Shown here: positions 13,854 through 54,787 of the stretch, in pieces
Position numbering within the stretch: the first letter of the stretch is position 1
Layout: each line of letters opens with the position of its first letter
DNA from: Anaerolineae bacterium
GTDB lineage: Bacteria; Chloroflexota; Anaerolineae; B4-G1; SLSP01
Direction of reading: 5' to 3'
Assembly (NCBI GenBank): GCA_034429675.1
Contig: DAOUFX010000230.1
Coordinates: forward strand, 2,339-66,338
Length of the DNA: 64,000 nucleotides
Translations under genes and position numbers: made by a program
Notes under the pieces: generated by a model
What the model saw: only the letters and a program-made list of their open reading frames with translations
Database searches by the model: none
Told to the model about the DNA's origin: nothing

Positions 13854-14273
13854 ATGCCGTGGAAAACTACGTTGCCGCAAGAGGCCGTCATTTTAATTGT
13901 TGAGGACAATCTCAATAATTTTATTTTGATGACCCGCTTGTTGGCTTATCTTGGCGTCAAAAAATGTGAATGGAAAGCGTCTGGCTGGAAGGTTCTGGAA
14001 TTCGCCGAGACGTTAGGGATGATAGACCTGGTGTTGATGGATATGAACCTTCCCGACTCAGACGGCTATCAAGCATTGGCCTCCTTGCGTTCCCACAAAC
14101 GTTTTGAGAATGTCCCCATTGTTGCGGTGACAGCGCATGTTTCGTTGGAAAATGTGGATCGAGCGCGGCGCGCCGGATTTGATGGCTTCATCGGAAAACC
14201 ACTGGACCCAGATCGCTTTCCTGAACAAGTTCGCCGGGTTTTAGATGGTGAGGAGGTATGGGAACCGGATTAG
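13854..14273 (+). CDS. single-domain CheY-like response regulator (receiver only)
   Basis: Receiver motifs are ILIVEDNLNN, the phospho-acceptor Asp in LVLMDMNLPDSDG, VAVTAH and FIGKP. The product is 139 aa with no output domain. Confidence 0.85.
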   Translation: MPWKTTLPQEAVILIVEDNLNNFILMTRLLAYLGVKKCEWKASGWKVLEFAETLGMIDLVLMDMNLPDSDGYQALASLRSHKRFENVPIVAVTAHVSLENVDRARRAGFDGFIGKPLDPDRFPEQVRRVLDGEEVWEPD

Positions 14274-16612
14274 GTGAGAGACAAGAGGTTCTCGACGCTT
14301 CGCGTATGATTCCCACTACGGGGATGCGTGGCGGTTTGGGGAGAACGCTGTTGACTGCCTTTTTAATTCTCACTATTTTGCCGTTGACTCTGACGGTAGG
14401 GTACGCTACACAGCAGAACAGCCAAAATCTTCAACGGGAAGTTGAAAACAAGCTCCTGGCTTTGGCGACATTGAAGGGTGAAGCGCTTCGTCGTTGGTTG
14501 GATGATCTGCAAAAGTTGTTGGTGTTTTCCATAACGTTGGACGGAGGCCCTTCGCACGAGGGGTATGAATCGTGGTGGCTAACATTGCGTGAGCAATTGC
14601 CCGACTTAATGGGAGTGGTTGTCTTGGACCAAGATCAGCAACCCGTTTGGTCTGTTACTCAATGCCTGGAAATTTGGAATCAAATCTCCCCTCTTTCAGG
14701 CGACTCTTTATCCTCAACGAATTTGACTTTCTTTTATTCTGGCGTTATCTTTTTTTTACCATCTGCATACCATAATCAGACATTCGTGTTCTGTCTGGAT
14801 GGAAAAGGTTTGAATGAGGTCATTCAAGTTGGCGAGCCGGTCGAGCAAACCAATCATACTTATCTAGTCTATCGTTCATGCCTTTGGCCGGATACGACGC
14901 AGTGTGTGCTTCCTTCTATTGTGGATCAGCAAGCGGGGGGGGTAAACAGCGGTGTCTACGAGGATCATAATGGGATAACGGTTATTGGTGCTTACTACCC
15001 GTTGAATTGGTCCGAGTTGGGTGTGTTGGTGGAGCAGGATCAGGCAAAAACTCTGGAGTCATCGGACCGTATCGCGGCAACGTTTATCGCTCTGGTTCTG
15101 GCTGTGGCTCTAGCCTCAACCGCTATCTCAGCCGTGGTGATTCGTCAAATAACACAGCCGGTCATTCGACTCACCGAATCGGCGTTGGCCATGGCTGACG
15201 GTAAATTGGATCAGCATCTTGAAGTTACTTCACGGGATGAAATTGGGATCCTCACGTATGTGTTCAATGAGATGGCGGCGGATTTGAAATCCTTGTATGC
15301 GGACTTAGAGGCAAGGGTCGCCGTGAAAACTAAACAGATACGGCACTTCAACGAACAGATACAGCGAAGGTCTTTACATTTGCAGGCCAGTCAGAGTGTT
15401 AGTCAGGCGATCACTTCCATACGCGATCCCGATTTATTGTTAAGCCGTGTGACGGAGTTGATTAGAGACCGTTTTTTATATACCTCGGTAGCCATTTACA
15501 TGGTCGAACAGGGGGGCGGCGTAGCTTACATGCGCGCATTGAGCCCAGACACTCATGTAACTACGTCACAGGGCAGTGGAAATTTTTATGCGTGGCCTGA
15601 ATATGTCTACATTGGCGACGGCTCCATTGTAGATCGCGCTATTCGTAAGCGCGGTCCAGTCGTTGTGCCCAAAGAAACCGACGAAGAGATTGAGTGGTAT
15701 CGGCGCACTTTGTGTCAGGCAGTGGTTCCTTTGCGCATGGGAGACCGTGTAACGGGCGCGATTGCCGTTTTGAGTGCGGGGCGTGAAGGAATACAAGACG
15801 ATGAATTAGAGGTCTTGGGGTCGTTGGCGAATCAGGTTGCTATTGCTTTGGAGAACGCTCAGGCTTACGAACGTGAACGCTCGGCTACGCAACAGCTTGA
15901 AGAGGCCGAGGTGTTTAAGTCCCGGTTTATGGCGAATATATCCCACGAGTTACGCGAACCCTTGACCAATGTTATTGGGTTCTCGCGGGTGATTCTGAAA
16001 GAGATTGATGGCCCTTTGACCTCGCAGCAACGCGAAGATTTGGAGCGAATTTACAAGGATAGTCAGAAGCTTTTGAATTTGATCACCGACATTCTGGATA
16101 TCTCACAAATCGAAGCCGGTTTAACGGAACTGAAACTACAACCTGCGGATTTCCACGAAGTAGTCAACGATGTGATGCCTACAGCCAGCGCTCTGGTGCG
16201 CGGTAAGGATGTTAATCTGGTTCAGGAAATCCCCGCGGATCTCCCTTTTTTGCGGGTTGATTCGGCCAAAATCCGTCAGGTTTTGGTGCACCTTTTTACA
16301 AATGCTGCTAAGTTCACCGAACAGGGCGAGATCAAGATAGGCGCCCGGCGCAGCGAAGATTATGTGTATGTGAGCATAAGCGACACCGGCGTAGGAATCC
16401 AACCGGAAGATTTGAACAATATCTTTACCAGTTTCGGACGGCTTGGTCATAGAAGCATGCAGCAGGGGCCAGGATTGGGACTGGCATTGAGTAAGAAGCT
16501 TATTGAGATGCATGGGGGGGAGATTTGGGTGCAAAGTGAGGAGGGAGAAGGAACAACGTTTACCTTCTCCTTACCTTGTTATGCACCTTCAGACGCACCC
16601 GAATTAGAGTAG
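14258..16612 (+). CDS. sensor histidine kinase: TM–periplasmic Cache-like–TM–HAMP–GAF–HisKA–HATPase_c
   Basis: The start overlaps the preceding response-regulator gene by 16 nt. There are two TM helices (LLTAFLILTILPLTLTV and AATFIALVLAVALASTAISAVVI). A HAMP domain spans QITQPVIRLTESALAMADGKLDQ...DEIGILTYVFNEMAADL. A GAF domain follows. The HisKA phospho-acceptor His is in FMANISHELREPL. ATPase N, G1, F and G2 boxes are HLFTNAAKF, SDTGVGI, FTSFGR and GPGLGLALS. This is the only catalytic output domain in the whole locus. Confidence 0.9.
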   Translation: MGTGLGERQEVLDASRMIPTTGMRGGLGRTLLTAFLILTILPLTLTVGYATQQNSQNLQREVENKLLALATLKGEALRRWLDDLQKLLVFSITLDGGPSHEGYESWWLTLREQLPDLMGVVVLDQDQQPVWSVTQCLEIWNQISPLSGDSLSSTNLTFFYSGVIFFLPSAYHNQTFVFCLDGKGLNEVIQVGEPVEQTNHTYLVYRSCLWPDTTQCVLPSIVDQQAGGVNSGVYEDHNGITVIGAYYPLNWSELGVLVEQDQAKTLESSDRIAATFIALVLAVALASTAISAVVIRQITQPVIRLTESALAMADGKLDQHLEVTSRDEIGILTYVFNEMAADLKSLYADLEARVAVKTKQIRHFNEQIQRRSLHLQASQSVSQAITSIRDPDLLLSRVTELIRDRFLYTSVAIYMVEQGGGVAYMRALSPDTHVTTSQGSGNFYAWPEYVYIGDGSIVDRAIRKRGPVVVPKETDEEIEWYRRTLCQAVVPLRMGDRVTGAIAVLSAGREGIQDDELEVLGSLANQVAIALENAQAYERERSATQQLEEAEVFKSRFMANISHELREPLTNVIGFSRVILKEIDGPLTSQQREDLERIYKDSQKLLNLITDILDISQIEAGLTELKLQPADFHEVVNDVMPTASALVRGKDVNLVQEIPADLPFLRVDSAKIRQVLVHLFTNAAKFTEQGEIKIGARRSEDYVYVSISDTGVGIQPEDLNNIFTSFGRLGHRSMQQGPGLGLALSKKLIEMHGGEIWVQSEEGEGTTFTFSLPCYAPSDAPELE

Positions 16613-16651
16613 TTTGATTGGCCTGGCGTATACCCTTTTGGGGAGGCTGGT

Positions 16652-18520
16652 GTGAGCAAGAAGCAAGAGACGACTGGAAATACTGCTCGGTCATTTCAGG
16701 ATACTGAAGTATGGCGGCGAGAGCTGTTTGGAAAAACCATGCTGGTTCTTTCCATACTATCGTTTGTCGTGCTGGTGTCAGGGTTGTATTATGTCTCAGC
16801 TACTCAAAAGGCCTGGTCGGCGCCGATTCTACTGTTTTTTTATGGATTGATTGTTGCTGCTGCTTTTGTCCAGAAAATTCCTTTCACCTGGCGCGTCTGG
16901 ACGTTTTTGAGCGTTTTGCTTGCAATGAGTGTTTTCGATCTGTTGACGTATGGTTGGGGCGAAGATGGAAGGATCTATCTACTCGGAGCGACGCTGTTCG
17001 CGATTCTATTTCTGGGCGCGCGACATGGCTTCGTTGTTTTTGTGATTTCCAGTACGATTTTGCTCGCTTATGTCATCGCCGCTTCGACTGGTATTCTATC
17101 ACTGGTTAGTTCCCCGGAAGTGATTCATCCTCCTGCGACCTTGTGGATGGGTTTGGCTATCTATATGGTGATTTCCACAGGCTTATTCATTTCATTCAAT
17201 TATATTCTCCCACGCCTGCTTGACGCTCTGCAAAAGGGTGTTGATCTTTCCCATGAGTTGGAGGTCGAACGCGCTCGATTGGCCGAGCGGACGAGCACTT
17301 TGCAAAACGCCAATGTGAACCTCCAACGTCGGGCGTTTTATTTGGAGTCAAGCACTCAAATTGCTCAGGCTCTGGCGACGATGGTCGAGTTAGATACTTT
17401 GTTGGACCAGGCCGTGAATTTGATTGCCGGTGTTTTCAGCTTTTCTCACGTCGCTGTTTATCTGATGGATGGTGAAGAAGAGTGGGCGGTGCTGCGCGCG
17501 GCTTCTTCTGCCGAGGGGCATCGCTTGTTGGCAAATCAGCATCGTGTTCTTTGTGGCAGCGATTGTATGATAGGGCAGGTATCCCAGGATTCACAGCCGC
17601 GCATGGCCGGGGTGACGCCTGATCTGCCGCCCGCTCGTTCAGAGATGACGTTGCCGTTGCTGGCAGGGACTCAGCGGATAGGGGTTTTGGATATTCAGAG
17701 TACTGAGGAAGCGGCTTTTGATCAGGATGATATGCGTGCATTGCAGGGATTGTCCGGTGTTCTGGCGGCGGCAATCAGCAATGCGAAGCGTTTGGGGGAT
17801 GAAGCCTCTGTGTTGGAGGCGGCAAGTCCGCTATACCATTTGGCGCGCCGTTTGGCAACGGCGCGCATCGAGCGTGAGATTTACACTGCAATTTTGGAGT
17901 CTTTGCGCGGATTTAGTCCGACGCAGGCCTTTATTTTCCGTTTTGAAGAGGGGCTTCCTTCTGCCTACATGGTAGCCGAGATGCGGAAGGGAGAGTTGGC
18001 ATTTCACGAGCAACGCGTGTGGGCGTCGGATATGCAATACCTCAGCGAGATTGTGGCCTTCAGTATGGCCGTTAGATCTTCTGTGATGATTGGCGACCTG
18101 AAAGAATATCAGTCAGGGCAGGCTGACATTGACGCCGTTTTGGTGCATCTGGCTGAGGATCTGGGAATTCTTTCCTTAGCTTTGACGCCGATGTGGGTCG
18201 GGTCGGTGCTTGTGGGAACTTTGTTGGTCATTTATCAGGCTCCGCATTATTTCACAGCTCTGCAGGGTCAGCTCTATCGTGTTCTGGCCGATTTAGGCGG
18301 ACGCGCTCTGGAGCGTATCTGGTTGCTTCAGCAAGCCCAGGCTCATTTGGAGAGTGAGCGTTGGATTAGAGAATTTGGTGAAGCTGTGACACGTATTCCC
18401 GATTTAGAAACGATGATTGCACAGTCGGCCACTTTGTTGCAGGATGTTTCAAAATCCGATGGCGTGTTGATTTCTTTGAGCGCACCTGAGCAGGAATCCT
18501 TGGAGGCGCCCGGTGAATAA
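16652..18520 (+). CDS. GAF-array member A: polytopic membrane N-domain + S-helix + GAF-A + GAF-B; no output domain
   Basis: GTG start 16652 has GGGGAGG 8 nt upstream. There are ~6 TM helices in aa 25–195. The coiled coil is LEVERARLAERTSTLQNANVNLQRRAFYLE. GAF-A runs FSFSHVAVYLMDGEEEWAVLRAASSAEGHRLLANQHRV...PDLPPARSEMTLPLLAGTQRIGVLDIQS. A divergent second GAF follows. The C-terminal tail is ...QAHLESERWIREFGEAVTRIPDLETMIAQSATLL. Confidence 0.8.
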   Translation: MSKKQETTGNTARSFQDTEVWRRELFGKTMLVLSILSFVVLVSGLYYVSATQKAWSAPILLFFYGLIVAAAFVQKIPFTWRVWTFLSVLLAMSVFDLLTYGWGEDGRIYLLGATLFAILFLGARHGFVVFVISSTILLAYVIAASTGILSLVSSPEVIHPPATLWMGLAIYMVISTGLFISFNYILPRLLDALQKGVDLSHELEVERARLAERTSTLQNANVNLQRRAFYLESSTQIAQALATMVELDTLLDQAVNLIAGVFSFSHVAVYLMDGEEEWAVLRAASSAEGHRLLANQHRVLCGSDCMIGQVSQDSQPRMAGVTPDLPPARSEMTLPLLAGTQRIGVLDIQSTEEAAFDQDDMRALQGLSGVLAAAISNAKRLGDEASVLEAASPLYHLARRLATARIEREIYTAILESLRGFSPTQAFIFRFEEGLPSAYMVAEMRKGELAFHEQRVWASDMQYLSEIVAFSMAVRSSVMIGDLKEYQSGQADIDAVLVHLAEDLGILSLALTPMWVGSVLVGTLLVIYQAPHYFTALQGQLYRVLADLGGRALERIWLLQQAQAHLESERWIREFGEAVTRIPDLETMIAQSATLLQDVSKSDGVLISLSAPEQESLEAPGE

Positions 18521-20213
18521 AGAGAGCAGAACCGAAGCGTTGCGCGTTACTGCGCCACGCCTTCGCGAGTGGCAATTGTCATTGCTAACGCAAATTTTGA
18601 GAATATTGGTCTTTACTGTGTTGTTGGTGATGTTGCCGGCTATCATTTTTGTGAGAGGGGAGCATCACGGTGTTGAGTTTATCGTTTTCTATGGAGTAGC
18701 CTTTTCTGTTTTGCTTATTTTGCGGTTTATAAAAAACATTCCCTACACGATAAAGGTTGTGGGATTGCTGGTTTTAATTTATGCATTGGGTATCTCGGCA
18801 TTGTTACGCGCGGGTTTAGGTAGCAATGCTAAGATTTTTTTGATCGCGTTGCCGTTCACGGCAATGTTGCTTCTGGGCAAATGGGAGGGATGGATTTGCC
18901 TGGTGGGGTCGTTTCTCACGATGGTGGTGTTTGGAGTACTGTTCTCCAACAATATCCTCTCCATTCCCACCGGGGTGCAGGTGATATCGCATAAGGTGGA
19001 AGCCTGGGGCAGTTATATCTTGACGATGACGTGGGCCGGCGCGTTTTTTGTGGCGACGCAAAGTTACATGCGGTCGCGTTTGGTGAGCGAGCTGGCGCAG
19101 AGCTGGGCGATGGCGCAGGAGCTGGATGTGCAGCGTGCGCAGGCTGAACGTGACGCAGTGCGCGCTCAGTTACATGCCGAACAGATGGGATGGATTGCGA
19201 ATTTTGGCAATATCTTGACTTCATTGCGAAATCGTGATTTGTTGGTTCAACGTGTTGTGCAAGATCTGGTCCAGAATTTTTCGCTGTATCAGGTCAATTT
19301 CTTTCTGGCCGATCGTTCTGGCGACGTATTGAACCTGGTCGCTGCCGCCGGCGCGCAAGGCCAGGATGGAGTTGGGGCGATGGTGCCGGAAATGGTAGGG
19401 GGACGTTCCCTTTTGGGGCAAGTCGCTCAGACCGGAAAAGAGCAGTCCCGCGTGCTTGATGTTGGTCAGCTTGCGTTGTTGCCTGACAGTCGTTATGAGG
19501 TGGTTTTGCCATTGGTGGTACGTGGTGAGCTTTTGGGAGTGCTGGATATTCACAGTACAGATGTCACTCTCTCCGAAGCTTCGCTTCAGCTTTTCCGCAT
19601 TGTTTCCGGCTATGTGTCAGGCGCTCTGGATACATTGCGCTTATTTGAAGAATCTGAGCGGCAGACTCACGAGATGCGTATGCTCTACGCACAGCATGTC
19701 GTGGCTTCCTGGCGTTCATTGTTAGCCGTTGAGTCTCTCCCGGCGTACTCGCTCGGCGCATTGCCAGCGGACCGTGCGCGTGAAGTGGCCGAGGAGGTGT
19801 TGCGCGATCGGCAATCCCGGTTGCTCACGTTGGCGGACGATCAGGGTCATTTGTTGGTAGTTCCTTTAATTGCTCGTGACGTGGTGTTGGGTTATCTGGC
19901 TTTTGTGAGGGCTTCTTCTAAAGGAACATGGGATCAAGAGTCGCGTGCTCTTATTGAGATGGCGGCCGATCGGTTGGCGTTGGCCCTGGATAACACCCGC
20001 CTCTTGATTGAAGTGCGACGGCAGGCTTTTTATCAAGAGCAACTGCGCCGTGTAGACGATGTCATTTGGCGCAATCCCAGCCCGGACGTCATTATGGCGC
20101 AGAGTGTGCGTGAACTCGGTCGTTTTTTGGGGGCCGGCGAGGTGCAATTGTATATCGCCCCCATGCAGCAGGAAGAGGGCCCCAATGGGGATAAATCGGT
20201 TGGCGATGAGTAA
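18513..20213 (+). CDS. GAF-array member B: polytopic membrane N-domain + coiled coil + GAF + GAF; no output domain
   Basis: GTG start 18513 overlaps the previous gene by 8 nt, and GGAGG lies 6 nt upstream. There are ~6 TM helices. The coiled coil is ELDVQRAQAERDAVRAQL. GAF-A runs FSLYQVNFFLADRSGDVLNLVAAAG...VVLPLVVRGELLGVLDIHS. GAF-B and the tail run ...DNTRLLIEVRRQAFYQEQLRRVDDVIWRNPSPDVIMAQSVRELGRFLGAGEVQLYI. Confidence 0.75.
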   Translation: MNKESRTEALRVTAPRLREWQLSLLTQILRILVFTVLLVMLPAIIFVRGEHHGVEFIVFYGVAFSVLLILRFIKNIPYTIKVVGLLVLIYALGISALLRAGLGSNAKIFLIALPFTAMLLLGKWEGWICLVGSFLTMVVFGVLFSNNILSIPTGVQVISHKVEAWGSYILTMTWAGAFFVATQSYMRSRLVSELAQSWAMAQELDVQRAQAERDAVRAQLHAEQMGWIANFGNILTSLRNRDLLVQRVVQDLVQNFSLYQVNFFLADRSGDVLNLVAAAGAQGQDGVGAMVPEMVGGRSLLGQVAQTGKEQSRVLDVGQLALLPDSRYEVVLPLVVRGELLGVLDIHSTDVTLSEASLQLFRIVSGYVSGALDTLRLFEESERQTHEMRMLYAQHVVASWRSLLAVESLPAYSLGALPADRAREVAEEVLRDRQSRLLTLADDQGHLLVVPLIARDVVLGYLAFVRASSKGTWDQESRALIEMAADRLALALDNTRLLIEVRRQAFYQEQLRRVDDVIWRNPSPDVIMAQSVRELGRFLGAGEVQLYIAPMQQEEGPNGDKSVGDE

Positions 20214-20227
20214 AGGGAGACAGGGTC

Positions 20228-23068
20228 ATGTTGCCTGATTTGCGTCAAATTTTTAACCTATTGGCCTGGTTATTGGCGATCTCCCAATTGGTTTTTGGGC
20301 TTTATATTATTTTCCTAAATCGCGGTCGCCCGGCAAACCGATTGGCCGTGGGTGGAACCTTTGGACTCGTTGCGGTGAATTCGTACGCGTTTGCGCTGCT
20401 TCTGGGCGCTGACGATGTGTCCGTGGCCTTGCATGCGACGTACGTTCTGGCGGCTACTTCTCCCATGCTGGGATGGGCTTTTCTGAGCGATGCTTTGATT
20501 TTGTTGCGGCCTCGCTGGTATGCAAAACGTCTCGCTTTGTGGGTTGGCATTCTCATAGGTTTATTTGCCTTGCCGGTCTTACTTACTTTTGTTGACGTTG
20601 TTTGGGGGACTAATCTCTGGTATTCCGGCCTGGATGTTGACACCTACAAAGTGGGCTCAGTGACATTGATGATGTACACCAGGGGCTATTTCTCCCCGGT
20701 GATTCACGGTGTATTTGGGTATCTGCCCCTCGGATTGTTCCTGATTGGAGTACTGTGGTTGGGACACGTTCGCCCACACCCCGATTTTCCGCGGAGTCAC
20801 TATTGGGTGTGGCCCTTTTTATTGGTTCAGGTGCTGGCGACAGCGATGTATTTTGTCTCCTCGGCTCTATCCGCGCCGATCGTTGTCCCACTTGTTTTCA
20901 ATGGGCTGTGTGTCGGAACCTATGCCATTGCATTTTTCACCCCGGCGCTTCTGGGACACTCTATGCAACGGGGAAGTTTGCGAACACGCCTGACAATTCT
21001 CATTTTTGTCATTGCTGTGCCTATTTCGGTCTTTGGCGTTATGCTGGTAGGATACCAGGCCGTGGGGATGGTCGAGGAAAGCGAGACGCGACGGTTGGCT
21101 GCGCGCAACGATGCTTTAGCTACCAGCATCAATGTATGGCTCAATATTCACGTCAATGCTCTGGCTGAGGTTGCGAAACAACCCGCTATTGTGACAATGG
21201 ATCCTGAACAGCAGGGGCCGGTTCTTAAATTGATGGATGATATTTACTCCAGCGTGTATTTGGTCAGCACCACAGATTTGACCGGGATGAATGTCGCTCG
21301 GAGCGACATGAAAGAGCCCACGTATTACGGTGACCGGCAGTGGTTCTTAAATGCGCGCGCCGGGGTATCTCCGGCGTTGGAGATTGTGCTAGGGCGCACG
21401 AGCGGAGTGCCGGCTTTGGTTGGCGCGATGCCTATCACGCAGACAGACCAGACCATTGTGGGAATCGTGATGTTTGCCAGTACCTTGTCGGATGTCGCCG
21501 CTCAGGTCAAAACTACTGAAATAGGCGAGTCTGGATTCGCTTATATTGTGGATCAGGAAGATCAGATTCTGGCGCATTCCGACCCGGAGGTGACAGCTCA
21601 CGTGACCGATTTCAGCGCTTACCCACCTGTGATGCAGTTGCGCGCCAATGTCGAGGGATTGGTCAAGTTCCGCGACAATTCGGGGCAACGTTGGTGGGCT
21701 TATGTGCGCAGCGCCGGGCCAGGTTTGGGCGTCATTGTTCAACAGCGTGAAGAAGAAGTGTTGCGCGGGACGCGGCAATTTCAGTTGGTCTATTGGGCGG
21801 TCACGTTAGTCGGGGCCTTGTTGCTGACGACTCTGGGATTTATGGCTGTACGGCAGGCTTTCCGCCCGATTTTGACGTTGACCGAAACGGCTCAGGCCAT
21901 TGTGCAGGGGGATTTGGCCCGGCTGGCCCCCGTTGAAAGCGAAGACGAGATCGGCACGTTGGCGCAGACGTTTAATTTGATGACGGCGCAACTGCGCACT
22001 TTGATCGAGACTTTGGAAGAGCGTGTGGCAGAACGCACGAGAGCGTTGGAAAGGCGTGCCGAGTATCTGGCTGTGACGGCGCGAGTGAGCCGGGTAACGG
22101 CCTCGATTTTGGATGTGGACACTCTGCTCACGCGGGTTGCCAATCTGATTTCTGAACGGTTTGGGTTTTACCATGCGGCAATTTTCCTGATTGACGACAG
22201 CGGCGAATGGGCTGTGTTGCGCACCGTTTCTTCTGAAGATGGAAAGCGTATGTTGGCGCGAGGACATCGTTTGCGCGTTGGCGAGCAAGGGATTGTGGGG
22301 TATGTCTCAGGCGCCGGCCGTCCGCGCATTGCTTTGGACGTGGACGAAGATACCGTATGGGTCAAGAATCCCGACTTGCCGAACACCCGTTCGGAGATGG
22401 CTTTGCCTTTGCAGGTACAAAACCAGATCATTGGGGTATTGGATGTGCAGAGCGTGGAACCCAATGCTTTTTCAACCGAGGATGTGGAGACGTTGCGCAT
22501 CCTTGCCGATCAGGTAGCCATTGCGATCCAGAACGCGCGGCAGTTTCGACAGAGCCAACAGATGCTCCGGGATTTACAACATGCCTATAGCGAGCTGGGG
22601 CAGCGGAGTTGGGCGACGTGGACGGCCTCGCATGTAGGGTATCAGTATATGCCGACAGGCGTTACTGCGATTCAGGCCTCGGAAGTGGCGACAGAAACGC
22701 CATCTTCGACGCAAGTGACAGACCCGAATATTTTGTGGGTGCCGTTACAATTGATCGGCGGACGGGTTTTTGGCGCATTGCGTTTGCAACGGGACATTGC
22801 GTACCCCTGGACGGAACAGGAGATTCAATTTGTGCAACAGGCGGGGCAAGCGATTGCGCAGGCATTGGAGGTGTCGCGTTTGCTGGAAGAGGCGCAGCGG
22901 CGAACGACTCGCGATCGTCTGGTTGGGGATATTGCCAATCAGTTGCACACGACGCTCGATCCAGATGTGATTATGAAAACATTGGTGCGTGAGTTAGGCC
23001 GTGTTTTGGGCGCGCGGGTGGCCTCTGTCGAAGTGACCGGTGGGCGTCCTCCCACGGGGATCGTCTAA
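20228..23068 (+). CDS. GAF-array member C: ~8-TM membrane domain + periplasmic Cache-like + TM + HAMP + S-helix + GAF-A + GAF-B; no output domain
   Basis: The HAMP domain is RPILTLTETAQAIVQGDLARLAPVESEDEIGTLAQTFNLMTAQL. The S-helix is LEERVAERTRALERRAEYLAVTARV. GAF-A runs FGFYHAAIFLIDDSGEWAVLRTVSSEDGKRMLARGHRLRVGEQGIVGYV...PDLPNTRSEMALPLQVQNQIIGVLDVQS. The tail is RDRLVGDIANQLHTTLDPDVIMKTLVRELGRVLGARVASVEV. Confidence 0.85.
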   Translation: MLPDLRQIFNLLAWLLAISQLVFGLYIIFLNRGRPANRLAVGGTFGLVAVNSYAFALLLGADDVSVALHATYVLAATSPMLGWAFLSDALILLRPRWYAKRLALWVGILIGLFALPVLLTFVDVVWGTNLWYSGLDVDTYKVGSVTLMMYTRGYFSPVIHGVFGYLPLGLFLIGVLWLGHVRPHPDFPRSHYWVWPFLLVQVLATAMYFVSSALSAPIVVPLVFNGLCVGTYAIAFFTPALLGHSMQRGSLRTRLTILIFVIAVPISVFGVMLVGYQAVGMVEESETRRLAARNDALATSINVWLNIHVNALAEVAKQPAIVTMDPEQQGPVLKLMDDIYSSVYLVSTTDLTGMNVARSDMKEPTYYGDRQWFLNARAGVSPALEIVLGRTSGVPALVGAMPITQTDQTIVGIVMFASTLSDVAAQVKTTEIGESGFAYIVDQEDQILAHSDPEVTAHVTDFSAYPPVMQLRANVEGLVKFRDNSGQRWWAYVRSAGPGLGVIVQQREEEVLRGTRQFQLVYWAVTLVGALLLTTLGFMAVRQAFRPILTLTETAQAIVQGDLARLAPVESEDEIGTLAQTFNLMTAQLRTLIETLEERVAERTRALERRAEYLAVTARVSRVTASILDVDTLLTRVANLISERFGFYHAAIFLIDDSGEWAVLRTVSSEDGKRMLARGHRLRVGEQGIVGYVSGAGRPRIALDVDEDTVWVKNPDLPNTRSEMALPLQVQNQIIGVLDVQSVEPNAFSTEDVETLRILADQVAIAIQNARQFRQSQQMLRDLQHAYSELGQRSWATWTASHVGYQYMPTGVTAIQASEVATETPSSTQVTDPNILWVPLQLIGGRVFGALRLQRDIAYPWTEQEIQFVQQAGQAIAQALEVSRLLEEAQRRTTRDRLVGDIANQLHTTLDPDVIMKTLVRELGRVLGARVASVEVTGGRPPTGIV

Positions 23069-23082
23069 ATACGGGGCGTGGT

Positions 23083-25854
23083 ATGTTGCAAAACTTTGAA
23101 GTGCTCTTAGCGCTGTTTGCTTTCGTCTTGCTCGCGGTAATGCTGGTATGGGTACTGCGCACCCCCCGGCTGCGTGGGTTACAGCGCCGGGGTTTGCTTG
23201 TATTTTGCGCCTTGACCGTGTTCCCGACGTTGTTGGCGTCAACTCTCACTAGTTGGCTCTCCGCCAATATGGTTGAAACTCGCCGGCTAGACCAATTGCG
23301 TATGGCGGCTGACATCAAACAACAGAAGTTTGATTTGTGGTTCGGAGAGTTAGAGCAGACTCTCTTACGTGAGGCGGAACCAGTGCATACGCAACGTCTG
23401 ACGCTTTTGACATCTACACCGGATTCCACCGAATTTAAGTCAGCTTATGCGGCGCAAGCAACGCGCTTCGCCGAGATATTGGCAGCGCAGCTTGATTTTG
23501 AAGCCTTTTCCTTATTGAATGTGCAGGGAGAGGTTATTTTGTCCACTGATGTGTCTGAATTGCTGAAGCAATACTCCGATAAGGATTACTTCCGGGGGGC
23601 TTTGACGGGTGTGTATGTTCAGACGCCGCGGTATTCTGCGACGGCTGCGGCTACGCCGGGGATCATTGCTTATCCGGTATCGGATGATGCGGGCAACGTC
23701 GTGGGGGTTTTTGTGGCGCGAGTGCGCGCCGATGCCTGGTATGAGGTCGTCGGGGAGTTGCTCAAGTTGGGGGAAACAGAGGAGATTTATCTGGTTGATG
23801 CGCGCTACAATCTGGTGACGCCTATACGTCTGAGCGGTGACACGACGTTTTTGCCTTCCACTGCCATGCGAACGGCTATTGACCACCAGGGAGAATACAT
23901 TGGTCGCGTGCGCAATTCCCGTGGGCGGAATGTCTTGGCGATCTATCGTTGGTTGCCGCAATTGAATGTATTGTTGGCGATCGAGGTGGAGCGGTACGAA
24001 ATCTTAAGCGGCATTTGGTTTATCAGCACCGTCAGTCTGGGGATTGCGTTTGTGTTATTAGGGATTTCCGGTGTTTTGGCATACTTGGCGCTGCGCAGTA
24101 TTTCCGTTCCCGTCGCCGAATTGGCCGATGCTGCCAGCAGTGTTGTGCGTGGCGATTGGGCTACAGTTCGTGAATTGCGCGGCAACGATGACCTGGCGCG
24201 ATTGACTCACAAGTTCAATCATATGATCAGTTATTTTCACCAGCGTATGGGCGATTTGGAAGGGCAGGTTGCCAAGCAGATGGGGGTCCTGGAAGGACGC
24301 GCTGCACAGCTCGAGGCCACTATGCAAATTTTGCGCCAGGTGGTCATGTTACGTGATGTGGACGAGTTGCTCACTATGACAGTTACCCGGCTTTCGCAGC
24401 AATTTGGTTTCCACCATGTTGCCGTTTTTCTGTTGGATGATAGCCGTCAACAGGCTATGCTGCGCGCGGCCTCGTCGGTGGCCGGGCGGCAGATGTTAGC
24501 CGAGAAGTTCCATGTGCCGGTGGGGATGGATAACTCAGTGGGTAGTGTTGCTACTCAGAAGAAGCTTCGCATTATGTCGGATTTGAGCGCGGAGAGTGTT
24601 GATTCGGAAACAGGGCTGTTATTGCAGACCCGTTCCCGGGTTTTGATCCCACTCAGTGTGCGCGACGAAGTGATCGGCGTATTGGACGTTCAATCCAATG
24701 AGGCAACGACTTTTACCGTTAGCGGAACGGCACATCTACAAACGGTAGCCGATCAGGTCGCCCTGGCTTTGGATAACGCTCGTTTGTTGACGGCTACCGA
24801 AGAGCGTTTGGGCGAGATTCGCCAGTTGTTGAGCAAGCAGAGCGCCGAAGACTGGCAGCGGTTTTCGCAGGAACGTCCGCATTGGGGCTATACCTACGAC
24901 GGTGTAGAGGTCAAACCTCAGCCGACGACTACTTTTGCAAAGCATTCGCCGCAATTGGTCTTGCCGGTGCAGGAGGGGCAGCAGCTGATCGGCGCGTTTA
25001 GAGCTTTTTGGGATCAGGCCGAGCCCAATTCTTACGATGTAGAGTTGGCGCGGGACATTATCAATCAGGCCAGTCAGGCTTTGGAGAGCGCGCGTTTGTT
25101 TAGCCGGATGCAGGGCGCCCTGGAGGAGGTGGGAGTTTTGTATCGCAGCAGCCAGGCGCTCCTGGCTGCGCGCACGAGCGAACAAATCTTGCGCGCTTTT
25201 GTGGACTATCTGGTTGCGCCGGGGATTGACCGTTGCCTTCTGGCTTTGTTGGAGCCGTATGCTACCGAGGAAGACATGATTGTCCGGGTCGAAGCTGTCT
25301 GGGAATCTGGCCGGGCGAAATCTTCCTTGTTGGGGGATCGTTGGGCGCTTGCGCGAATTCCGGCGCTTGTGGCTGTCGTTCGCGGCGACGCCTCTGCGCG
25401 CCCCTGGGTAATTCCAGACGTCTCAAAACCCAATGTGCATCTGGACAGCACGACGCGTGAGGTTTTTGCCAGTGTCTTCCGTGTCCGCGCTTTGTTGTTG
25501 GTCCCTTTGGCCGTCGCCGGGAAGGTGCTAGGGTGGTTGTTCGTAGAATCCTTGCACGCTCCTTACGCTTTTACCGAGAGAGAAGTGCGTATGTATCGTA
25601 GCCTGGCCGATCAGGCGGCCATTGTGTTACAGAGTTTGCGCCTGTTGACTGAGGTTTCGTTGCGCGCTGACCATGAACGCCGCATCACTTCGATTGCGGC
25701 CGAAATCCGGCGCCACACCGATACTGAGGCGATTTTGCAAACCTCCATTCTTGAGTTGAGCAAGGCGCTCCAAGCCGCAGAGGGTTTTATCCAAATCGGA
25801 TTTGAAACCGATCCTGCGGTTGCGACCGATGGACCGGAGGCGGAGGACAAATGA
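23083..25854 (+). CDS. GAF-array member D: TM + Cache-like + TM + HAMP + three GAF-like domains + conserved tail; no output domain
   Basis: TM helices are at aa 5–25 and ~300–330. The HAMP domain is VPVAELADAASSVVRGDWATV...LARLTHKFNHMISYF. GAF-A runs FGFHHVAVFLLDDSRQQAMLRAASSVAGRQML. The tail is DHERRITSIAAEIRRHTDTEAILQTSILELSKALQAAEGFIQI. Confidence 0.85.
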   Translation: MLQNFEVLLALFAFVLLAVMLVWVLRTPRLRGLQRRGLLVFCALTVFPTLLASTLTSWLSANMVETRRLDQLRMAADIKQQKFDLWFGELEQTLLREAEPVHTQRLTLLTSTPDSTEFKSAYAAQATRFAEILAAQLDFEAFSLLNVQGEVILSTDVSELLKQYSDKDYFRGALTGVYVQTPRYSATAAATPGIIAYPVSDDAGNVVGVFVARVRADAWYEVVGELLKLGETEEIYLVDARYNLVTPIRLSGDTTFLPSTAMRTAIDHQGEYIGRVRNSRGRNVLAIYRWLPQLNVLLAIEVERYEILSGIWFISTVSLGIAFVLLGISGVLAYLALRSISVPVAELADAASSVVRGDWATVRELRGNDDLARLTHKFNHMISYFHQRMGDLEGQVAKQMGVLEGRAAQLEATMQILRQVVMLRDVDELLTMTVTRLSQQFGFHHVAVFLLDDSRQQAMLRAASSVAGRQMLAEKFHVPVGMDNSVGSVATQKKLRIMSDLSAESVDSETGLLLQTRSRVLIPLSVRDEVIGVLDVQSNEATTFTVSGTAHLQTVADQVALALDNARLLTATEERLGEIRQLLSKQSAEDWQRFSQERPHWGYTYDGVEVKPQPTTTFAKHSPQLVLPVQEGQQLIGAFRAFWDQAEPNSYDVELARDIINQASQALESARLFSRMQGALEEVGVLYRSSQALLAARTSEQILRAFVDYLVAPGIDRCLLALLEPYATEEDMIVRVEAVWESGRAKSSLLGDRWALARIPALVAVVRGDASARPWVIPDVSKPNVHLDSTTREVFASVFRVRALLLVPLAVAGKVLGWLFVESLHAPYAFTEREVRMYRSLADQAAIVLQSLRLLTEVSLRADHERRITSIAAEIRRHTDTEAILQTSILELSKALQAAEGFIQIGFETDPAVATDGPEAEDK

Positions 25855-28541
25855 TGAGTTTCTGGTCAAAGAACTTCGCCCGGCGGTTGGTCACTTATTT
25901 TGCGATTTTGCTTGTGTCAACCATGGCTTTGCTGGGGATTCTTGTCTATCCCCTGGTGCGTTCCAGCATGATTGAAGCGCTTTATGCGCGTTTGGATACC
26001 GCACTGGATTTGAAACTGGTCACGATGCGCTATTGGATTCAGGATCAACGCCAGGAAGTGGCCATGCTCGCTGGAAACGCAACGGTTCAGAACCAGGTCG
26101 CTGTGTTGATGAAGAATGACGCCAACAGCGCCGCTTACAAGAAAGCTTATCGTGAACTCTCTTTGAACTTTAATGCGGTAGTATTGCAGAAGGGCGGGTT
26201 ACAGGAGATTTTTGTTTTAACCGAACCGGATGCGCGCGTGTTGATTTCCACAGATACGACCCAAGAGGGTGTTTATCATTCGGATGACGCCTATTTTGTG
26301 CAAGGACGCTCGCAGCTTTATGTTCAAAGTGTCTATGTTGATCCGGATGTTGATGTCCCGATGATGACGGCGTCTTCCCCCATATTTCAAGACGGCAAGT
26401 TGATGGGGGTGCTGGTGGCGCATCTGGATCTCGATCGCATGCACGAGATGCTTTTGGAGCAGCCCGGGTTGGGATCGCGCGGCGATATGTATTTGATGGC
26501 GCGCCCTGGTCGTTTCATTGTTACATCACGCGAGGAATCGCAGACGACCGCGCCTGAGGTAACTTCAGAGGGCATTCAGGCGGCTCTGAGCGGTCAAGAT
26601 GGTCATAGTGTTTATAGGAATTATGCGGGTCGTTCGGTGGTGGGCGCCTATCGTTGGTTAAAGGAATACAATGTGGCCTTTCTGGTCGAGATGGAGGAAC
26701 GTGAATCCATTGTCAAACCATTGCAGCGTATTTTACTGATTTTGCTGGGATGCGGCGCTCTCTTTGGTGTTCTTGCGGTCGGGGTGGGATATGTATTGGT
26801 GCGGCGAAGTATGCGGCCATTGCAGATGTTGAATACCCTGGCGCGACGGATTGCCGACGGCGATTTGCAGCAGACGGCCCCGATTTTGTACGAGGATGAA
26901 GTAGGAACCCTTGCGCGCACATTTAACACGATGACTCAGGAATTGCGTCGTCTGTACGCTGGTCTCGAACAGGAAGTGGCGGCACGTACGCAGACCCTTG
27001 AACAGCGCAATCGCCAATTGGAAGTTGCCGCGCAGGTTGCCAGTGCGGTGTCGGCTATCTATGAGATTGATCGTTTATTGAATGAGACCGTGCGTCTGAT
27101 TGTCACCTATTTTCATTTTGATTATGCTGCGATTTTCATCCTCGATGAAATCGGCGACTCGGTGGCGCTTCAGGCCGCTGCTTCTGGGGGCGAACATTTG
27201 TTGTTGAATCAGCGCTACAAACAGCGACTAGGACAGGGTATCATCGGACGGGTGGCGCAAACCGGGGCTGCGCGGGTCGTGCCGGATGTTGAGATGGATG
27301 CGGATTTTATCCCTAACCCGGATATGCCCGCGATTCGCTCGGAGCTGGCTGTTCCGCTTCTGGGACGTGAGGGAGTCCTGGGAGTTTTGGATGTGCAGTC
27401 TCTCAAACCGGGAGCTTTTACCGAGGAAGACGCCGGGATCTTGCAGATGATGGCCGAACAGATTGCTTTGGCGATTCAGAATGCCCGGTTGCTCAAGGAC
27501 AGCGAGCGAGTCGTGCATGAACTTGAAAGGCGTTATGGCGAGCATACTCGCGATTCCTGGCAATCCCGATTGGCGCGGCAACGTCTGGCCTATCGCTATA
27601 CCGGTATGTCGGTGGAGCCGTTAGCGCCGGAGTCGCCAGCGGCCACTGCCGATGTGTCGGTAGCGCAAACCAGGTTGGTTTGGGATGATGAGCGGGGTCG
27701 CCAGTTGGTGGCGCCTATCCGATTGCGGGACCAGGTGTTGGGTTCCATTGTATTGCGTCAGGGAGTGGGCGACGCCGCCTGGACCGAGGCTGATGTGGCG
27801 ATGTTGGCTTCTACTTGCGAACAGATTGGTCTGGCACTGGACAACGCCCGTTTGTTGGATGAATCCGCCGCGCGCGCCATCCGCGAGAGGGTGTCGAGTG
27901 AGGTCAGCGCGCGGATTCGCGATGCGGCGCTTGATGTCGCATCGGTGTTACAAGTGACGGCCTATGAAATGGCGAAGTTGTCGCAGGCTGCCAGTACCGT
28001 GCATGTGCGCGGCGGCGAGATTGGCGCGACGTATTTGGAGTCTTGCGCTTATGCCTATGATGCCATGTCGGCGCAGCAGCCGGTAGACTCGAGCCTGTTG
28101 TCTTTGACCCGCCTGGTTAGCTCGCATTGTTTGGTTATCCCGTTGATGTTGCGTGAGCAAATCGTGGGCGCCGTGCGTTTGGAACGGGCTCCCGAACAAT
28201 TCTCCTGGCTGCCGGAAGAAGTTCAGATGGTGGAGGAGATCAGTGTACAGGTGGGTTTGGCCCTGGAAAACGCACAATTGCTGGTTGAGAGCCGGCAGCG
28301 TGCTGCACGTCAGCAGCAACTTAACGAGATTTCTCGGAATTTTTCTCAGTCTTTGGATATGGACGTTATGTTGCGCACCGCAGCGCGCGAGCTTGGTCGA
28401 ATACCAGGGGTTACTGAGGCCGGTATTCACATAACGGCGCCGGTGATGCAAGGCACAGCGCAAGGGGTGGCGCCAGAAGCGGCGCAAGAGACTGCGCCGG
28501 AAGCCGCGCCGGGCGCGGCAACCACGGAGAGTCAGGAATAG
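25851..28541 (+). CDS. GAF-array member E: TM + Cache-like + TM + HAMP + S-helix + GAF-A + GAF-B + GAF-C + tail; no output domain
   Basis: An ATGA start/stop overlap joins it to the previous gene. The HAMP domain is RPLQMLNTLARRIADGDLQQT...EVGTLARTFNTMTQEL. The S-helix is LEQEVAARTQTLEQRNRQLEVAAQV. GAF-A runs FHFDYAAIFILDEIGDSVALQAAASGGEHLL...PDMPAIRSELAVPLLGREGVLGVLDVQS. The tail is ERVSSEVSARIRDAALDVASVLQV...LNEISRNFSQSLDMDVMLRTAARELGRIPGV. Confidence 0.85.
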   Translation: MMSFWSKNFARRLVTYFAILLVSTMALLGILVYPLVRSSMIEALYARLDTALDLKLVTMRYWIQDQRQEVAMLAGNATVQNQVAVLMKNDANSAAYKKAYRELSLNFNAVVLQKGGLQEIFVLTEPDARVLISTDTTQEGVYHSDDAYFVQGRSQLYVQSVYVDPDVDVPMMTASSPIFQDGKLMGVLVAHLDLDRMHEMLLEQPGLGSRGDMYLMARPGRFIVTSREESQTTAPEVTSEGIQAALSGQDGHSVYRNYAGRSVVGAYRWLKEYNVAFLVEMEERESIVKPLQRILLILLGCGALFGVLAVGVGYVLVRRSMRPLQMLNTLARRIADGDLQQTAPILYEDEVGTLARTFNTMTQELRRLYAGLEQEVAARTQTLEQRNRQLEVAAQVASAVSAIYEIDRLLNETVRLIVTYFHFDYAAIFILDEIGDSVALQAAASGGEHLLLNQRYKQRLGQGIIGRVAQTGAARVVPDVEMDADFIPNPDMPAIRSELAVPLLGREGVLGVLDVQSLKPGAFTEEDAGILQMMAEQIALAIQNARLLKDSERVVHELERRYGEHTRDSWQSRLARQRLAYRYTGMSVEPLAPESPAATADVSVAQTRLVWDDERGRQLVAPIRLRDQVLGSIVLRQGVGDAAWTEADVAMLASTCEQIGLALDNARLLDESAARAIRERVSSEVSARIRDAALDVASVLQVTAYEMAKLSQAASTVHVRGGEIGATYLESCAYAYDAMSAQQPVDSSLLSLTRLVSSHCLVIPLMLREQIVGAVRLERAPEQFSWLPEEVQMVEEISVQVGLALENAQLLVESRQRAARQQQLNEISRNFSQSLDMDVMLRTAARELGRIPGVTEAGIHITAPVMQGTAQGVAPEAAQETAPEAAPGAATTESQE

Positions 28542-28546
28542 AGACT

Positions 28547-33711: not shown

Positions 33712-33725
33712 AAGGGAGAGACCAG

Positions 33726-35444
33726 ATGTTTTCCTGGATTGCACGCTTATTGAATCCACCGACCTTCAGCAGGGATGAGGAAAAGTCGCGGCAGGCGCGT
33801 TTGTTAGCCATGGTGGTGCGGATTGTTTTGGCGATGGCCATACTCCTGATCCTGGCCGGATTGGTTGCGATGGGACTAAGCTGGCGCGCCGGAGAGCCGG
33901 TGTGGTCTTCGACGGTGTTTTGGTGGTACGTGTTTGCCCTGCTCCTTTTTGTGCTGTCGGGAATCGTGCAGTTTCTGTCCCATGCCGGGCATGTGCGTCC
34001 TGCCAGCATTGTTTTAACCGTGACGATAGGGTGCCTGTTCATATACGGACATTGGTTGACCAGAGTGGGCATCCGTTCTCCGCTTTTCTTAGGCTATATC
34101 CTGGTCGCCTTTGTCGCCGGGTTGTTGTTGGGACGCCGTTGGACGGTGATTGTGGCGGGCGTAAGTATACTTCTGGCCGGCTTCTTGCTTTTTGCCGAGC
34201 ATACCGGTTTGTGGGGCGTGCGCGATATTGCTGAGTTGCCCTGGTTAGCTTCAGGCGGGAGTATGAGCCTTTACGTGGTCGCTGTGGCGCTTTTCTATGT
34301 CGCGTTGAGCAACTTTGACTTGTCTCTAAAGCGGGCAAGGGAGGTTAACCAGGAGTTGGATATTTTCCGAGCCTCGCTTGAGGCGCGTGTTGAGGCGCGC
34401 ACCCGTGATTTGTCGCGGCGCGCGCGATACCTGGAAGCTACGGCGGAAGTGGCGCGTTACGTTAGCTCGGAACTGGCGATGGCTGAATTGCTTATGCGTA
34501 TCGTCAGATTGATCAGTGAACAGTTTGGGTTCTATCACGCCGGTGTTTTTCTGTTAGACCCTACCGGCGCGTGGGCTGAGTTGCAGGCAGCCTCCAGTCC
34601 GGGGGGGCAGGCGATGTTGGCCCGTGGTCATCGTCTGGGTGTAGGACAACAAGGACTTGTGGGATACGTGACTGCCCGTGGTGAGCCACGGGTGGCTTCG
34701 GATATCGGGGACGACGCGGTGTTCTTTGATAATCCCGACTTACCGGAGACCCGTTCGGCGATGGCGCTCCCCTTGCGTGTTGGCGGGCGCATCATCGGGG
34801 CGCTCGATGTGCAGAGCAAGGAATCGGCGGCTTTTAGCCAGGAAGATGTCGCCGTCCTGCAAATTTTGGCCGACCAGGTTGCCGTCGCGATTAGCAATGC
34901 CCGGCTTTTCGAGCGTCTGCAAGAGAGTGTTGCTGCCGAACGTCGCGCCTATGGGGAATTGAGCTATCAAGCGTGGGCTGAAGTACTCAAAGAACAAGGC
35001 GAGTTGGGTTACATTGACAATGTCGCCGGGACTTCCATCGTGAAAGGCGCGCCGATGCCCGATGCTATGCAGTTGGCGGGCAGGGAGGCCACGATTGTCC
35101 AGGAGGAAGAAACCGTGTCCATTCCGGTTACCGTTCAGGAGGGAGAAGGCGTGTTGGGGGTGGTGCGGCTGCGCAAACCCGAGGGCACAGGCGCCTGGAC
35201 GCCGGATCAGGTGTCATTGATGCAGGACATTGTCCAGCAGTTAGGCGTCGCGTTGGAAAGAGCGCGGCTGTATCAGGATTCGCAGCAGGTGGCGATTCGT
35301 GAGCGGTTGGTCAGTGAGGCGACCAGCCGTATGCGGCAGACGTTGGATGTAGAAGCCGTCTTGAAAACGGCGGCGGACGAAATCTATCAGGCATTGCAGT
35401 TGGATGAAATTGTCGTGCGCCTGGCGACTAAACACGACGAGTAG
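33726..35444 (+). CDS. GAF-array member H: polytopic membrane N-domain + S-helix + GAF-A + GAF-B + tail; no output domain
   Basis: GGGAGAG lies 6 nt before the ATG. There are ~6 TM helices. The S-helix is LEARVEARTRDLSRRARYLEATAEVAR. GAF-A runs FGFYHAGVFLLDPTGAWAELQAASSPGGQAMLARGHRLGVGQQGLVGYV...PDLPETRSAMALPLRVGGRIIGALDVQS. The tail is RERLVSEATSRMRQTLDVEAVLKTAADEIYQALQLDEIVVRL. Confidence 0.85.
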   Translation: MFSWIARLLNPPTFSRDEEKSRQARLLAMVVRIVLAMAILLILAGLVAMGLSWRAGEPVWSSTVFWWYVFALLLFVLSGIVQFLSHAGHVRPASIVLTVTIGCLFIYGHWLTRVGIRSPLFLGYILVAFVAGLLLGRRWTVIVAGVSILLAGFLLFAEHTGLWGVRDIAELPWLASGGSMSLYVVAVALFYVALSNFDLSLKRAREVNQELDIFRASLEARVEARTRDLSRRARYLEATAEVARYVSSELAMAELLMRIVRLISEQFGFYHAGVFLLDPTGAWAELQAASSPGGQAMLARGHRLGVGQQGLVGYVTARGEPRVASDIGDDAVFFDNPDLPETRSAMALPLRVGGRIIGALDVQSKESAAFSQEDVAVLQILADQVAVAISNARLFERLQESVAAERRAYGELSYQAWAEVLKEQGELGYIDNVAGTSIVKGAPMPDAMQLAGREATIVQEEETVSIPVTVQEGEGVLGVVRLRKPEGTGAWTPDQVSLMQDIVQQLGVALERARLYQDSQQVAIRERLVSEATSRMRQTLDVEAVLKTAADEIYQALQLDEIVVRLATKHDE

Positions 35445-35458
35445 ACGAGGCAGAGTTT

Positions 35459-38708: not shown

Positions 38709-38711
38709 AGT

Positions 38712-45024: not shown

Positions 45025-45027
45025 TGT

Positions 45028-47587: not shown

Positions 47588-47601
47588 GGAGGATTGAGGC
47601 T

Positions 47602-47952: not shown

Positions 47953-47988
47953 GCGGTAAAGGGTGCACCATAGTGAAAGAAGGCGATT

Positions 47989-48567: not shown

Positions 48568-48608
48568 ATGTCAGATGTTTATTGAAAGCTGAGTGAGGAG
48601 TGCCCATA

Positions 48609-48953: not shown

Positions 48954-48965
48954 GTTTGGAGGAAC

Positions 48966-49607: not shown

Positions 49608-49624
49608 GTGGCTGAGGTGCGCCC

Positions 49625-54761: not shown

Positions 54762-54787
54762 GCGCTTTAGACTAGGGAGTCAGGTAT

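Follow-up and report, generated by a model that had tools for sequence, protein, structure and literature searches.

The question raised by this locus is whether a set of neighbouring sensor genes with strikingly similar regulatory domains has been copied or homogenised recently, or whether the likeness is old and has been maintained by selection on the proteins. The window, i.e. the whole stretch of 64,000 nucleotides that was analysed, is part of a metagenomic contig from an Anaerolineae bacterium (DAOUFX010000230.1), which is also found in several assemblies from JGI and Logan. It contains an array of 21 paralogous GAF-module genes (g8-g21 and g24-g30; 14258..63561), identified through their open reading frames (ORFs) and domain matches and lying, like all the features given below, on the forward strand. 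The block that prompted the question, at 22170-22440, belongs to g11, and an earlier, sequence-only reading of the window had taken its likeness to the corresponding parts of other array genes as a sign of very recent events. It is, in our judgement, very likely that the block instead belongs to a GAF domain encoded in a tandem sensor array that is old, has been stably inherited and is typical of the class Anaerolineae, and that its likeness to paralogues reflects selection at the protein level.

The array genes share a general plan consisting of an N-terminal sensor, a helical linker, a full GAF domain (GAF-A), a second region (GAF-B) matched by Pfam GAF profiles over its C-terminal half only, and a conserved tail of about 50 residues. 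The block is enclosed by GAF-A of g11 (gene, 20228-23068; domain as placed by Pfam, 22109..22531). Residues 628-768 of the g11 product score 83.6 bits against GAF (PF01590, cut-off 22.4) and 86 bits against GAF_2 (PF13185, cut-off 28.6), the alignments spanning positions 1-133 and 2-136 of the respective profiles, and the domain is thus a complete member of the GAF family.

Similarity among the GAF-A domains

Nine GAF-A domains, including those of g11, g12 and g18 (genes C, D and J of the sequence-only reading, whose gene S is g25), had been described as almost invariant. The motifs quoted in support are present in the genes named, but the mean pairwise identity of the nine is only 53% (range 37-70%). 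Just 18 positions of the 91-residue block are the same in all of them, and g12 is clearly divergent. Over the same block the five members of a second group, distinguished by a Cys residue discussed below, are on average 51% identical to each other, and identity between the two groups is 40%. When the GAF-A segment of around 195 residues is compared across 19 paralogues, the best pair shares 62% identity in protein and 64% in DNA, with a median protein identity of 37%. The proportion of synonymous differences (pS) among these 19 lies between 0.60 and 0.83, with a median of 0.73, which is saturation; corresponding values of the synonymous substitution rate (dS) exceed 1.2 or are undefined.

A nucleotide string had been offered as a visible example of near-identity between g11 and g18, and this example holds: the 26-mer encoding GEQGIVGYV in g11 (22280..22305) recurs in g18 (gene, 37236-38708) at 37875..37900 with a single mismatch. 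The significance of such strings was assessed quantitatively against a null in which synonymous codons were permuted within each gene, so that protein and codon usage were held fixed, with ORF overlaps trimmed. Across the 50 kb of the array, the paralogues share 28 exact runs of 14 nt or longer, where the null gives 22.2 +/- 4.5 (P=0.11). The longest of these runs, of 20 nt (34860..34879 and, in g18, 38091-38110), compares with a null mean of 18.9 and a null maximum of 27 (P=0.37). Local patches are equally unexceptional: the best 25-codon window contains 18 identical codons (null, 18.0 +/- 0.9) and the longest run of identical codons is 9 (null, 9.2 +/- 1.2), giving P values of 0.71 and 0.69, respectively. 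The 26-mer extends to 29 nt with no more than one mismatch, making it the most extreme stretch in the array, and this too falls inside the null distribution (24.3 +/- 2.6, maximum 35; P=0.07). Similarity of the DNA is therefore no greater than that implied by the conserved protein and its codon usage, an outcome that the sequence-only reading had itself named as its refutation.

Age of the array

Related loci were sought in a scan covering one genome per species, which yielded 389 relatives; statistics on loci are drawn from the best 80, comprising 79 distinct loci. Nearly all of these 80 come from metagenome-assembled genomes of Anaerolineae or other Chloroflexota, in addition to the cultured Anaerolinea thermolimosa IMO-1. 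Several co-directional copies are present in every one of the 79 loci, with a median of 7, and a maximum of 12, per locus of no more than 21 kb. One locus (L030, CAZAGR010000008.1) is labelled 'uncultured Propionivibrio sp.' yet, with 12 copies of the family, resembles those of Anaerolineae; mis-binning of the contig is the probable explanation, rather than presence of the family in a betaproteobacterium. The family is large, with 37,995 cluster representatives at E<=1e-10, a count that includes the poly-GAF relatives described below.

In the nearest genome (Anaerolineae bacterium R24_97, locus L004) the order g12, g13, g14, g15, g16, g17, g20 is the same, with a few extra genes, and the matches are full-length, extending through the N-terminal sensors at 43-57% identity. 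Each of the 19 GAF-A domains of the window finds its nearest relative in another genome and not in the window. Thus, the GAF-A of g11 is 78% identical to its closest relative outside but 60% to its closest paralogue within, the figures for g16 being 80% and 60% and those for g20 77% and 38%. A neighbour-joining (NJ) tree gives a sister from another genome, with bootstrap values of 0.83-1.0, to each of g10, g11, g13, g14, g15, g16, g17, g20 and g26, and contains no supported exclusive pair of window genes. A database search is in agreement: among the matches listed, the best to the g26 and to the g11 modules are 61% identical, to be compared with at most 41% (g26) and with 42% (g11, to g16) for paralogues in the window over the same module. 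Positional orthologues of each paralogue are thus present in other genomes. Since outside relatives are nearer, orthologue pairs are supported and synteny is kept, the array predates the divergence of these lineages and has not undergone concerted evolution.

What has maintained the likeness can be seen from a region-wise comparison of eight orthologue pairs. The proportion of nonsynonymous differences (pN) is 0.13-0.31 in GAF-A, 0.25-0.50 in the N-terminal sensors and 0.23-0.38 in the C-terminal part, and is lowest for GAF-A in six of the eight pairs, the C-terminal part being equal or slightly lower in g14 and g15. With dS saturated, the ratio of the nonsynonymous to the synonymous rate is not properly estimable and pN and pS were employed instead. 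Since pS is about 0.7 in every region, the low pN of GAF-A identifies its conservation as purifying selection on the protein, and this, together with common codon preferences, explains both the shared motifs and the occasional shared runs of 17-29 nt.

Against this background, the proposal that very recent duplication or ongoing gene conversion keeps the GAF-A domains near-identical, with the shared DNA driving the shuffling of sensors, must be regarded as extremely improbable. The tandem, co-directional arrangement would suit it, as would the string shared by g11 and g18 with its borderline extension. However, saturated synonymous sites, exact identity limited to 20 nt, the want of any excess of shared runs or identical codons, whether globally or locally, and the closer relationship of every GAF-A to a gene of another species, with well supported orthologue pairs and synteny conserved between genomes whose proteins are about 45-57% identical, all stand against it. 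The array resembles tandem gene families undergoing concerted evolution in being composed of co-directional paralogues with a common conserved domain, but the signatures of that process (excess synonymous identity, long tracts and within-genome clustering) are absent. Nor is the idea upheld that the array is a substrate for recombination-driven shuffling of its sensors: with exact identity reaching no more than 20 nt, it now offers essentially no substrate for homologous recombination.

Two GAF-A types and the type-specific cysteine

Two GAF-A groups had been distinguished by the motifs AASS and AGTG, the latter with a conserved Cys. Both motif types exist and both are widespread: among the GAF-A domains of the 79 loci, found with an AASS-type query, 255 are of AASS type, 74 of AGTG type and 207 are other variants, with both main types found together in 37 loci. 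The types are thus real and ancient, and at least two coexist in arrays. On the other hand, the view of the AGTG group as a clade is unsupported, the smallest clade of the NJ tree containing it having a support of 0.04, and the word type is accordingly used here for a class of motif, without implying a clade. The best marker of type is the residue following F-x-[FL]-Y, which is His in 99% of AASS-type domains (in g11, the codon at 22172..22174, within FGFYH) and Tyr in 87% of those of AGTG type (in g26, the codon at 53856-53858).

The Cys itself was expected in all five window members of the group but is present in four, in g26 (codon TGT, 53988..53990, within MIGQCV), g14 (30530-30532), g15 (32863-32865) and g28 (59053-59055); g25 has Ser instead (AGT, 51134-51136). 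Its conservation in other genomes is similarly partial. It is kept in orthologues of g14, g15 and g26. The best homologues of g26, a sample biased towards the query, include 116 domains of AGTG type, and 101 of these (87%) have the Cys. Yet in the genome-locus sample it occupies only 40 of 74 AGTG-type positions (54%), the remaining 46% being Ser (18 domains, 24%), Ala (8, 11%), Thr and Val (4, or 5%, each), and the nearest relatives of g28 have Ser. AASS-type domains never have Cys at this column (0/255), Val being found in 212 of the 255. AGTG-type domains contain no second conserved Cys column. Given the substitutions in 46% of the sample, the Cys is unlikely to be indispensable as a site of covalent attachment, but it may have a part in redox sensing or ligand binding.

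Fold, pocket and closest known GAF systems

The AlphaFold2 (AF2) model of the g26 module has a mean predicted local distance difference test (pLDDT) score of 87.6, with values of 91-98 throughout GAF-A except for residues 101-110, at 73. It comprises GAF-A, a connecting helix of 50 residues and a GAF-B that is smaller and rich in beta structure, with two helices at the end. Foldseek matches the model to solved GAF domains at E values of 1e-9 to 1e-7, placing it in the GAF fold, the best matches being free methionine-R-sulfoxide reductase (fRMsr; PDB code 3mmh) and the PtsP GAF (3ci6 and 3trc), followed by the tandem GAFs of PDE5 and PDE2A.

fRMsr (3mmh, 3ksf and 4mn7) is the best match in structure (E 2.2e-9, target template modelling (TM) score 0.76) and also the best PDB match in sequence, sharing the motifs SE..(V/L)PL and GVLD.xS with the array proteins. 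In this enzyme the catalytic Cys lies in an H[I/V]xCD motif, the substrate is bound by Trp66, Tyr70, Glu132, Asp149 and Asp151, and resolving Cys residues lie upstream of the catalytic one, a GVCG motif being one candidate position (bioRxiv 10.1101/2021.02.26.433065). The substrate-binding Glu is kept and nearly invariant in the array GAF-A domains. AASS-type domains keep Asp at the position of Asp149, where those of AGTG type have Thr or Ser, and the position of the Trp corresponds to the His/Tyr discriminator of the types; the Tyr and Asp151 positions are Phe and Gln, respectively. The catalytic Cys (HIAC in fRMsr) is absent, the aligned residues reading N-P-x-L-P, and the Cys of GVCG is replaced by Ile or Val, the family Cys being three residues further downstream, where 3mmh has Ala. 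With both enzyme Cys residues missing, membership of the fRMsr family was rejected, and the array GAF-A is a sensor module rather than an enzyme.

In the pocket-lining helix, IVGYV of the AASS type is matched by MIGxC in the AGTG type, the Cys of g26 being residue 91 of the modelled module, in helix 87-94. Homology to the GAF domains of fRMsr and PtsP leads us to infer that the pockets of the two types are lined differently, and hence that their small ligands are most likely not the same. On this view, the Cys would be a pocket-shaping or possibly thiol-reactive residue rather than an obligatory site of covalent attachment.

PtsP (EI-Ntr), the second-best structural neighbour (target TM score 0.75-0.82), likewise has a regulatory GAF on a signalling protein, one that responds to small nitrogen metabolites. 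The sequence similarity is marginal (E 0.47), however, and the array proteins have no PEP-utilising (phosphoenolpyruvate-utilising) phosphotransferase part. The tandem GAFs of PDE2A, PDE5 and the cyanobacterial CyaB (1mc0, 3lfv) match the whole g26 model, with two GAF-like domains that are joined by a long helix and follow other elements. Those modules regulate an attached catalytic domain, which the array proteins lack, and in the array GAF-B is reduced, matching Pfam over its C-terminal half only, and is followed by an orphan GAF N-terminal stub. Canonical bilin-binding GAFs of phytochromes have a Cys-His motif in a PAS/PHY context. In the array family the residue after the Cys is Val, Ile, Thr, Met, Ala or Leu across the window genes and all listed Cys-bearing homologues, and, with no Cys-His motif and no PHY domain detected by Pfam, the bilin-binding class was also rejected.

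Two other interpretations of GAF-A need to be set against a ligand-binding pocket of two types. GAF-A might bind no ligand at all and serve for dimerisation and signal transmission, the two types marking two sets of partners that pair with one another. The long flanking helices resemble those of tandem-GAF transmitters, the PDE2A and PDE5 tandem GAFs and a phytochrome GAF-PHY are among the structural matches, and the N-terminal sensors already supply input domains; all this is in keeping with such a role. Nevertheless, the most conserved motifs (TRSE, LDVQS/xTVQS and FYH/LYY) align with substrate-binding residues of fRMsr and not with the helices, and the positions discriminating the types fall in pocket elements, so that we consider pure transmission somewhat unlikely. 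Still less probable, and indeed quite doubtful, is that the type-specific Cys is a working thiol, whether as a redox, nitric oxide or metal sensor or through covalent ligand attachment as in the bilin-binding GAFs of phytochromes and cyanobacteriochromes. Its frequency of 87% in the 116 close homologues, set beside its complete absence from the 255 domains of the other type, its retention in the orthologues of g14, g15 and g26, and its location in a pocket-adjacent helix three residues past the position aligned to the GVCG Cys would favour a reactive role, as might the resolving Cys residues of fRMsr, which precede the catalytic one by about 30 and 40 residues (bioRxiv 10.1101/2021.02.26.433065). 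Yet Cys falls to 54% in the unbiased genome sample, with Ser reaching 24%, and Ser is found both in g25 and in the closest relatives of g28. No partner Cys is available for a disulfide. The residue after the Cys is Val, Ile or Thr rather than the His of the phytochrome motif, and a PHY domain is absent.

The C-terminal tail and poly-GAF relatives

The last 50 or so codons of each array gene (e.g. 35289-35441 in g16 and 54606-54758 in g26) encode a conserved tail of pattern R-E-Q/R ... R..LD.D.VL.TA..E...L....V.L. Taken alone, the 50-residue tails are not recognised by Pfam. Comparison by hhalign with GAF-A columns 12-55 gives a probability of 87.7% (E 3.4e-6), indicating homology to the helix and strand with which a GAF domain begins. 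In g13 the tail is continued by another complete GAF and then by a second tail, and g12 and g20 have an additional complete GAF before the tail. Furthermore, a profile of GAF-B plus tail matches giant poly-GAF proteins at every GAF-GAF junction. The homology of the tail, its continuation in g13 and the junction matches together identify the tail as the orphan stub of a next GAF.

The minimal member of the array, g24 (48966..49607), contains only a coiled coil, GAF-B and the C-terminal stub, as seen from domain analysis and an AF2 model. In this model (pLDDT 74.7), to which no PDB entry is significantly similar by Foldseek (best E 1.2), the strand of the stub is predicted to pair into a sheet. 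The stub may either complete GAF-B or serve in trans, and GAF-B plus stub may constitute an atypical or circularly permuted GAF.

The GAF-B plus stub profile retrieves 10,325 cluster representatives at E<=1e-30. The giant proteins that it matches (P0241-P0390) are 1,100-3,950 residues long with up to 21 matched stretches, and three of them scanned with Pfam (P0241, P0251 and P0308) contain 7-10 GAF domains. In P0241 (2,543 residues) these are accompanied by a MASE3 sensor and a kinase ATPase domain, but P0251 and P0308 are without any output domain.

Gene layout and N-terminal sensors

The array genes are all co-directional and closely packed between 14.2 and 63.6 kb of the window, with intergenic gaps of -70 to +67 nt and two exceptions of about 200 nt. 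The latter, at 46807-47005 and 56507-56703, are the only gaps in the array that could hold internal promoters. Neighbours overlap by 4-11 nt at several junctions (e.g. 18513-18520, 25851-25854, 31333-31336 and 37236-37246) and the remaining genes are mostly 3-17 nt apart; this overlapping or close spacing suggests long polycistronic units with translational coupling. Scans of the window with Rfam and for tRNAs gave no matches.

The 19 segments comprising signalling helix and GAF-A lie at 15305-15916, 17267-17845, 19131-19697, 22013-22597, 24256-24840, 26964-27545, 30239-30823, 32575-33153, 34377-34961, 36104-36685, 37608-38192, 41323-41904, 45754-46338, 50852-51427, 53718-54290, 55421-56008, 58783-59346, 60729-61313 and 62449-63036. 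Upstream of them the sensors differ from gene to gene and include dCache_1 with HAMP, MASE11, a periplasmic-binding-protein-like domain, six PAS domains and multi-pass membrane regions with no Pfam match. One of the last, the N-terminal 560 or so residues of g28 (56704-58400), is a long hydrophobic multi-pass region fused to the GAF module; it has no Pfam match at E<=0.01 and by eye resembles a transporter-like sensor. In the MASE11-type g19 (38712-40484) the Pfam GAF match is confined to the C-terminal GAF part, at residues 426-509, corresponding to the downstream GAF-B-like region. GAF-A itself is without a Pfam match, and RFQRFGVECVGIFMQD and SGREIFPL stand where its core motifs are usually found. 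Because the core motifs are replaced, the GAF-A pocket of g19 may be degenerate.

Two further pairs of genes are inserted in the array, at 47006-47587 and 47602-47952, and at 47989-48567 and 48600-48953, each consisting of a slr1658-family (SiaB-like) gene and a slr1659-superfamily (STAS) gene, as identified by NCBIfam and STAS matches. All four ORFs exceed the cut-offs, with slr1658_cyano scores of 218.6 and 226.6 bits (cut-off 200) and slr1659_superfam scores of 124.9 and 157.2 bits (cut-off 100). None of the 79 related loci contains such a pair, which is thus not a general component of the array, and the insertion for this reason looks like a lineage-specific acquisition of a partner-switching module.

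The head of the array and a possible signalling scheme

The first array gene, g8 (14258..16612), encodes a protein with the Pfam architecture sensor-HAMP-GAF-HisKA-HATPase_c. Its HisKA and HATPase_c domains score 67.7 and 103 bits, and it is the sole array gene with histidine-kinase domains or any enzymatic output: a Pfam scan finds no output domain in any other array gene of the window. Similarly, none of the 240 best homologues listed has a catalytic or DNA-binding Pfam domain, although these are all of 615 residues or fewer, the lists being skewed towards short members. Matches of the window's long members (784-1,526 residues) to themselves are missing from the lists, even though the collection includes g16; the selection of candidates by words may therefore under-sample long proteins and so skew statistics of domain composition.

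Directly upstream of g8, at 13413-13814 and 13854-14273, are two genes for response regulators of a single domain, with Pfam Response_reg scores of 97 and 75.7 bits. The order of two response regulators, kinase and GAF proteins (13413-16612) recurs in at least six other Anaerolineae loci (L029, L033, L016, L059, L008 and L015). Each array protein would thus join a different N-terminal sensor to a common GAF-A/GAF-B/stub module with no enzymatic output, and the sensor signals would probably converge, through protein-protein contact, on the GAF histidine kinase g8 and its two receivers. From the missing output domains and the conserved head we infer such action through contacts on the head kinase as the simplest model.

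A functional analogy, and no more than that, may be drawn with the methyl-accepting chemotaxis receptors, in which many sensors of dCache/HAMP/PAS type are likewise mounted on one conserved, non-enzymatic cytoplasmic module and where a kinase and single-domain CheY-like receivers are also co-encoded. The array proteins differ in having no methyl-accepting chemotaxis protein (MCP) signalling domain; CheA and CheW are not found in the window, and the kinase is of HisKA type. A bolder form of the scheme, which we hold to be distinctly improbable, would be an undescribed chemoreceptor-like system in which dozens of output-less sensors form assemblies among themselves and with the one head kinase, maybe via the orphan stub, funnelling into two CheY-like receivers, while the His-type and Tyr/Cys-type pockets add a second intracellular input from ligand or redox state.

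Several points weigh against the overall picture of an old array of ligand-binding sensors converging on one kinase. Ligand binding by GAF-A is deduced entirely from homology, the adjacency of Cys and pocket comes from helix assignment and residue alignment rather than from side-chain coordinates, and gene order is the sole ground for convergence on g8. The AGTG/Cys group does not form a clade, the saturation of dS limits the analysis of selection to pN and pS, and the 29-nt stretch shared by g11 and g18 is borderline and may mark a very old, eroded conversion tract.

This locus is unsuitable as an example of gene conversion or of recombination-driven domain shuffling, and is not an actively recombining sensor array. 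It belongs instead to a large family for which the literature searched holds neither a description nor any experimental characterisation, and which forms, across a bacterial class, unusually stable arrays of 10-20 genes that have no recognisable output and stand behind a conserved head of two response regulators and a kinase. The His-type and Tyr/Cys-type pockets offer concrete targets for ligand screening and, if the convergence model is true, the array would represent a new wiring of many sensors to one two-component output.

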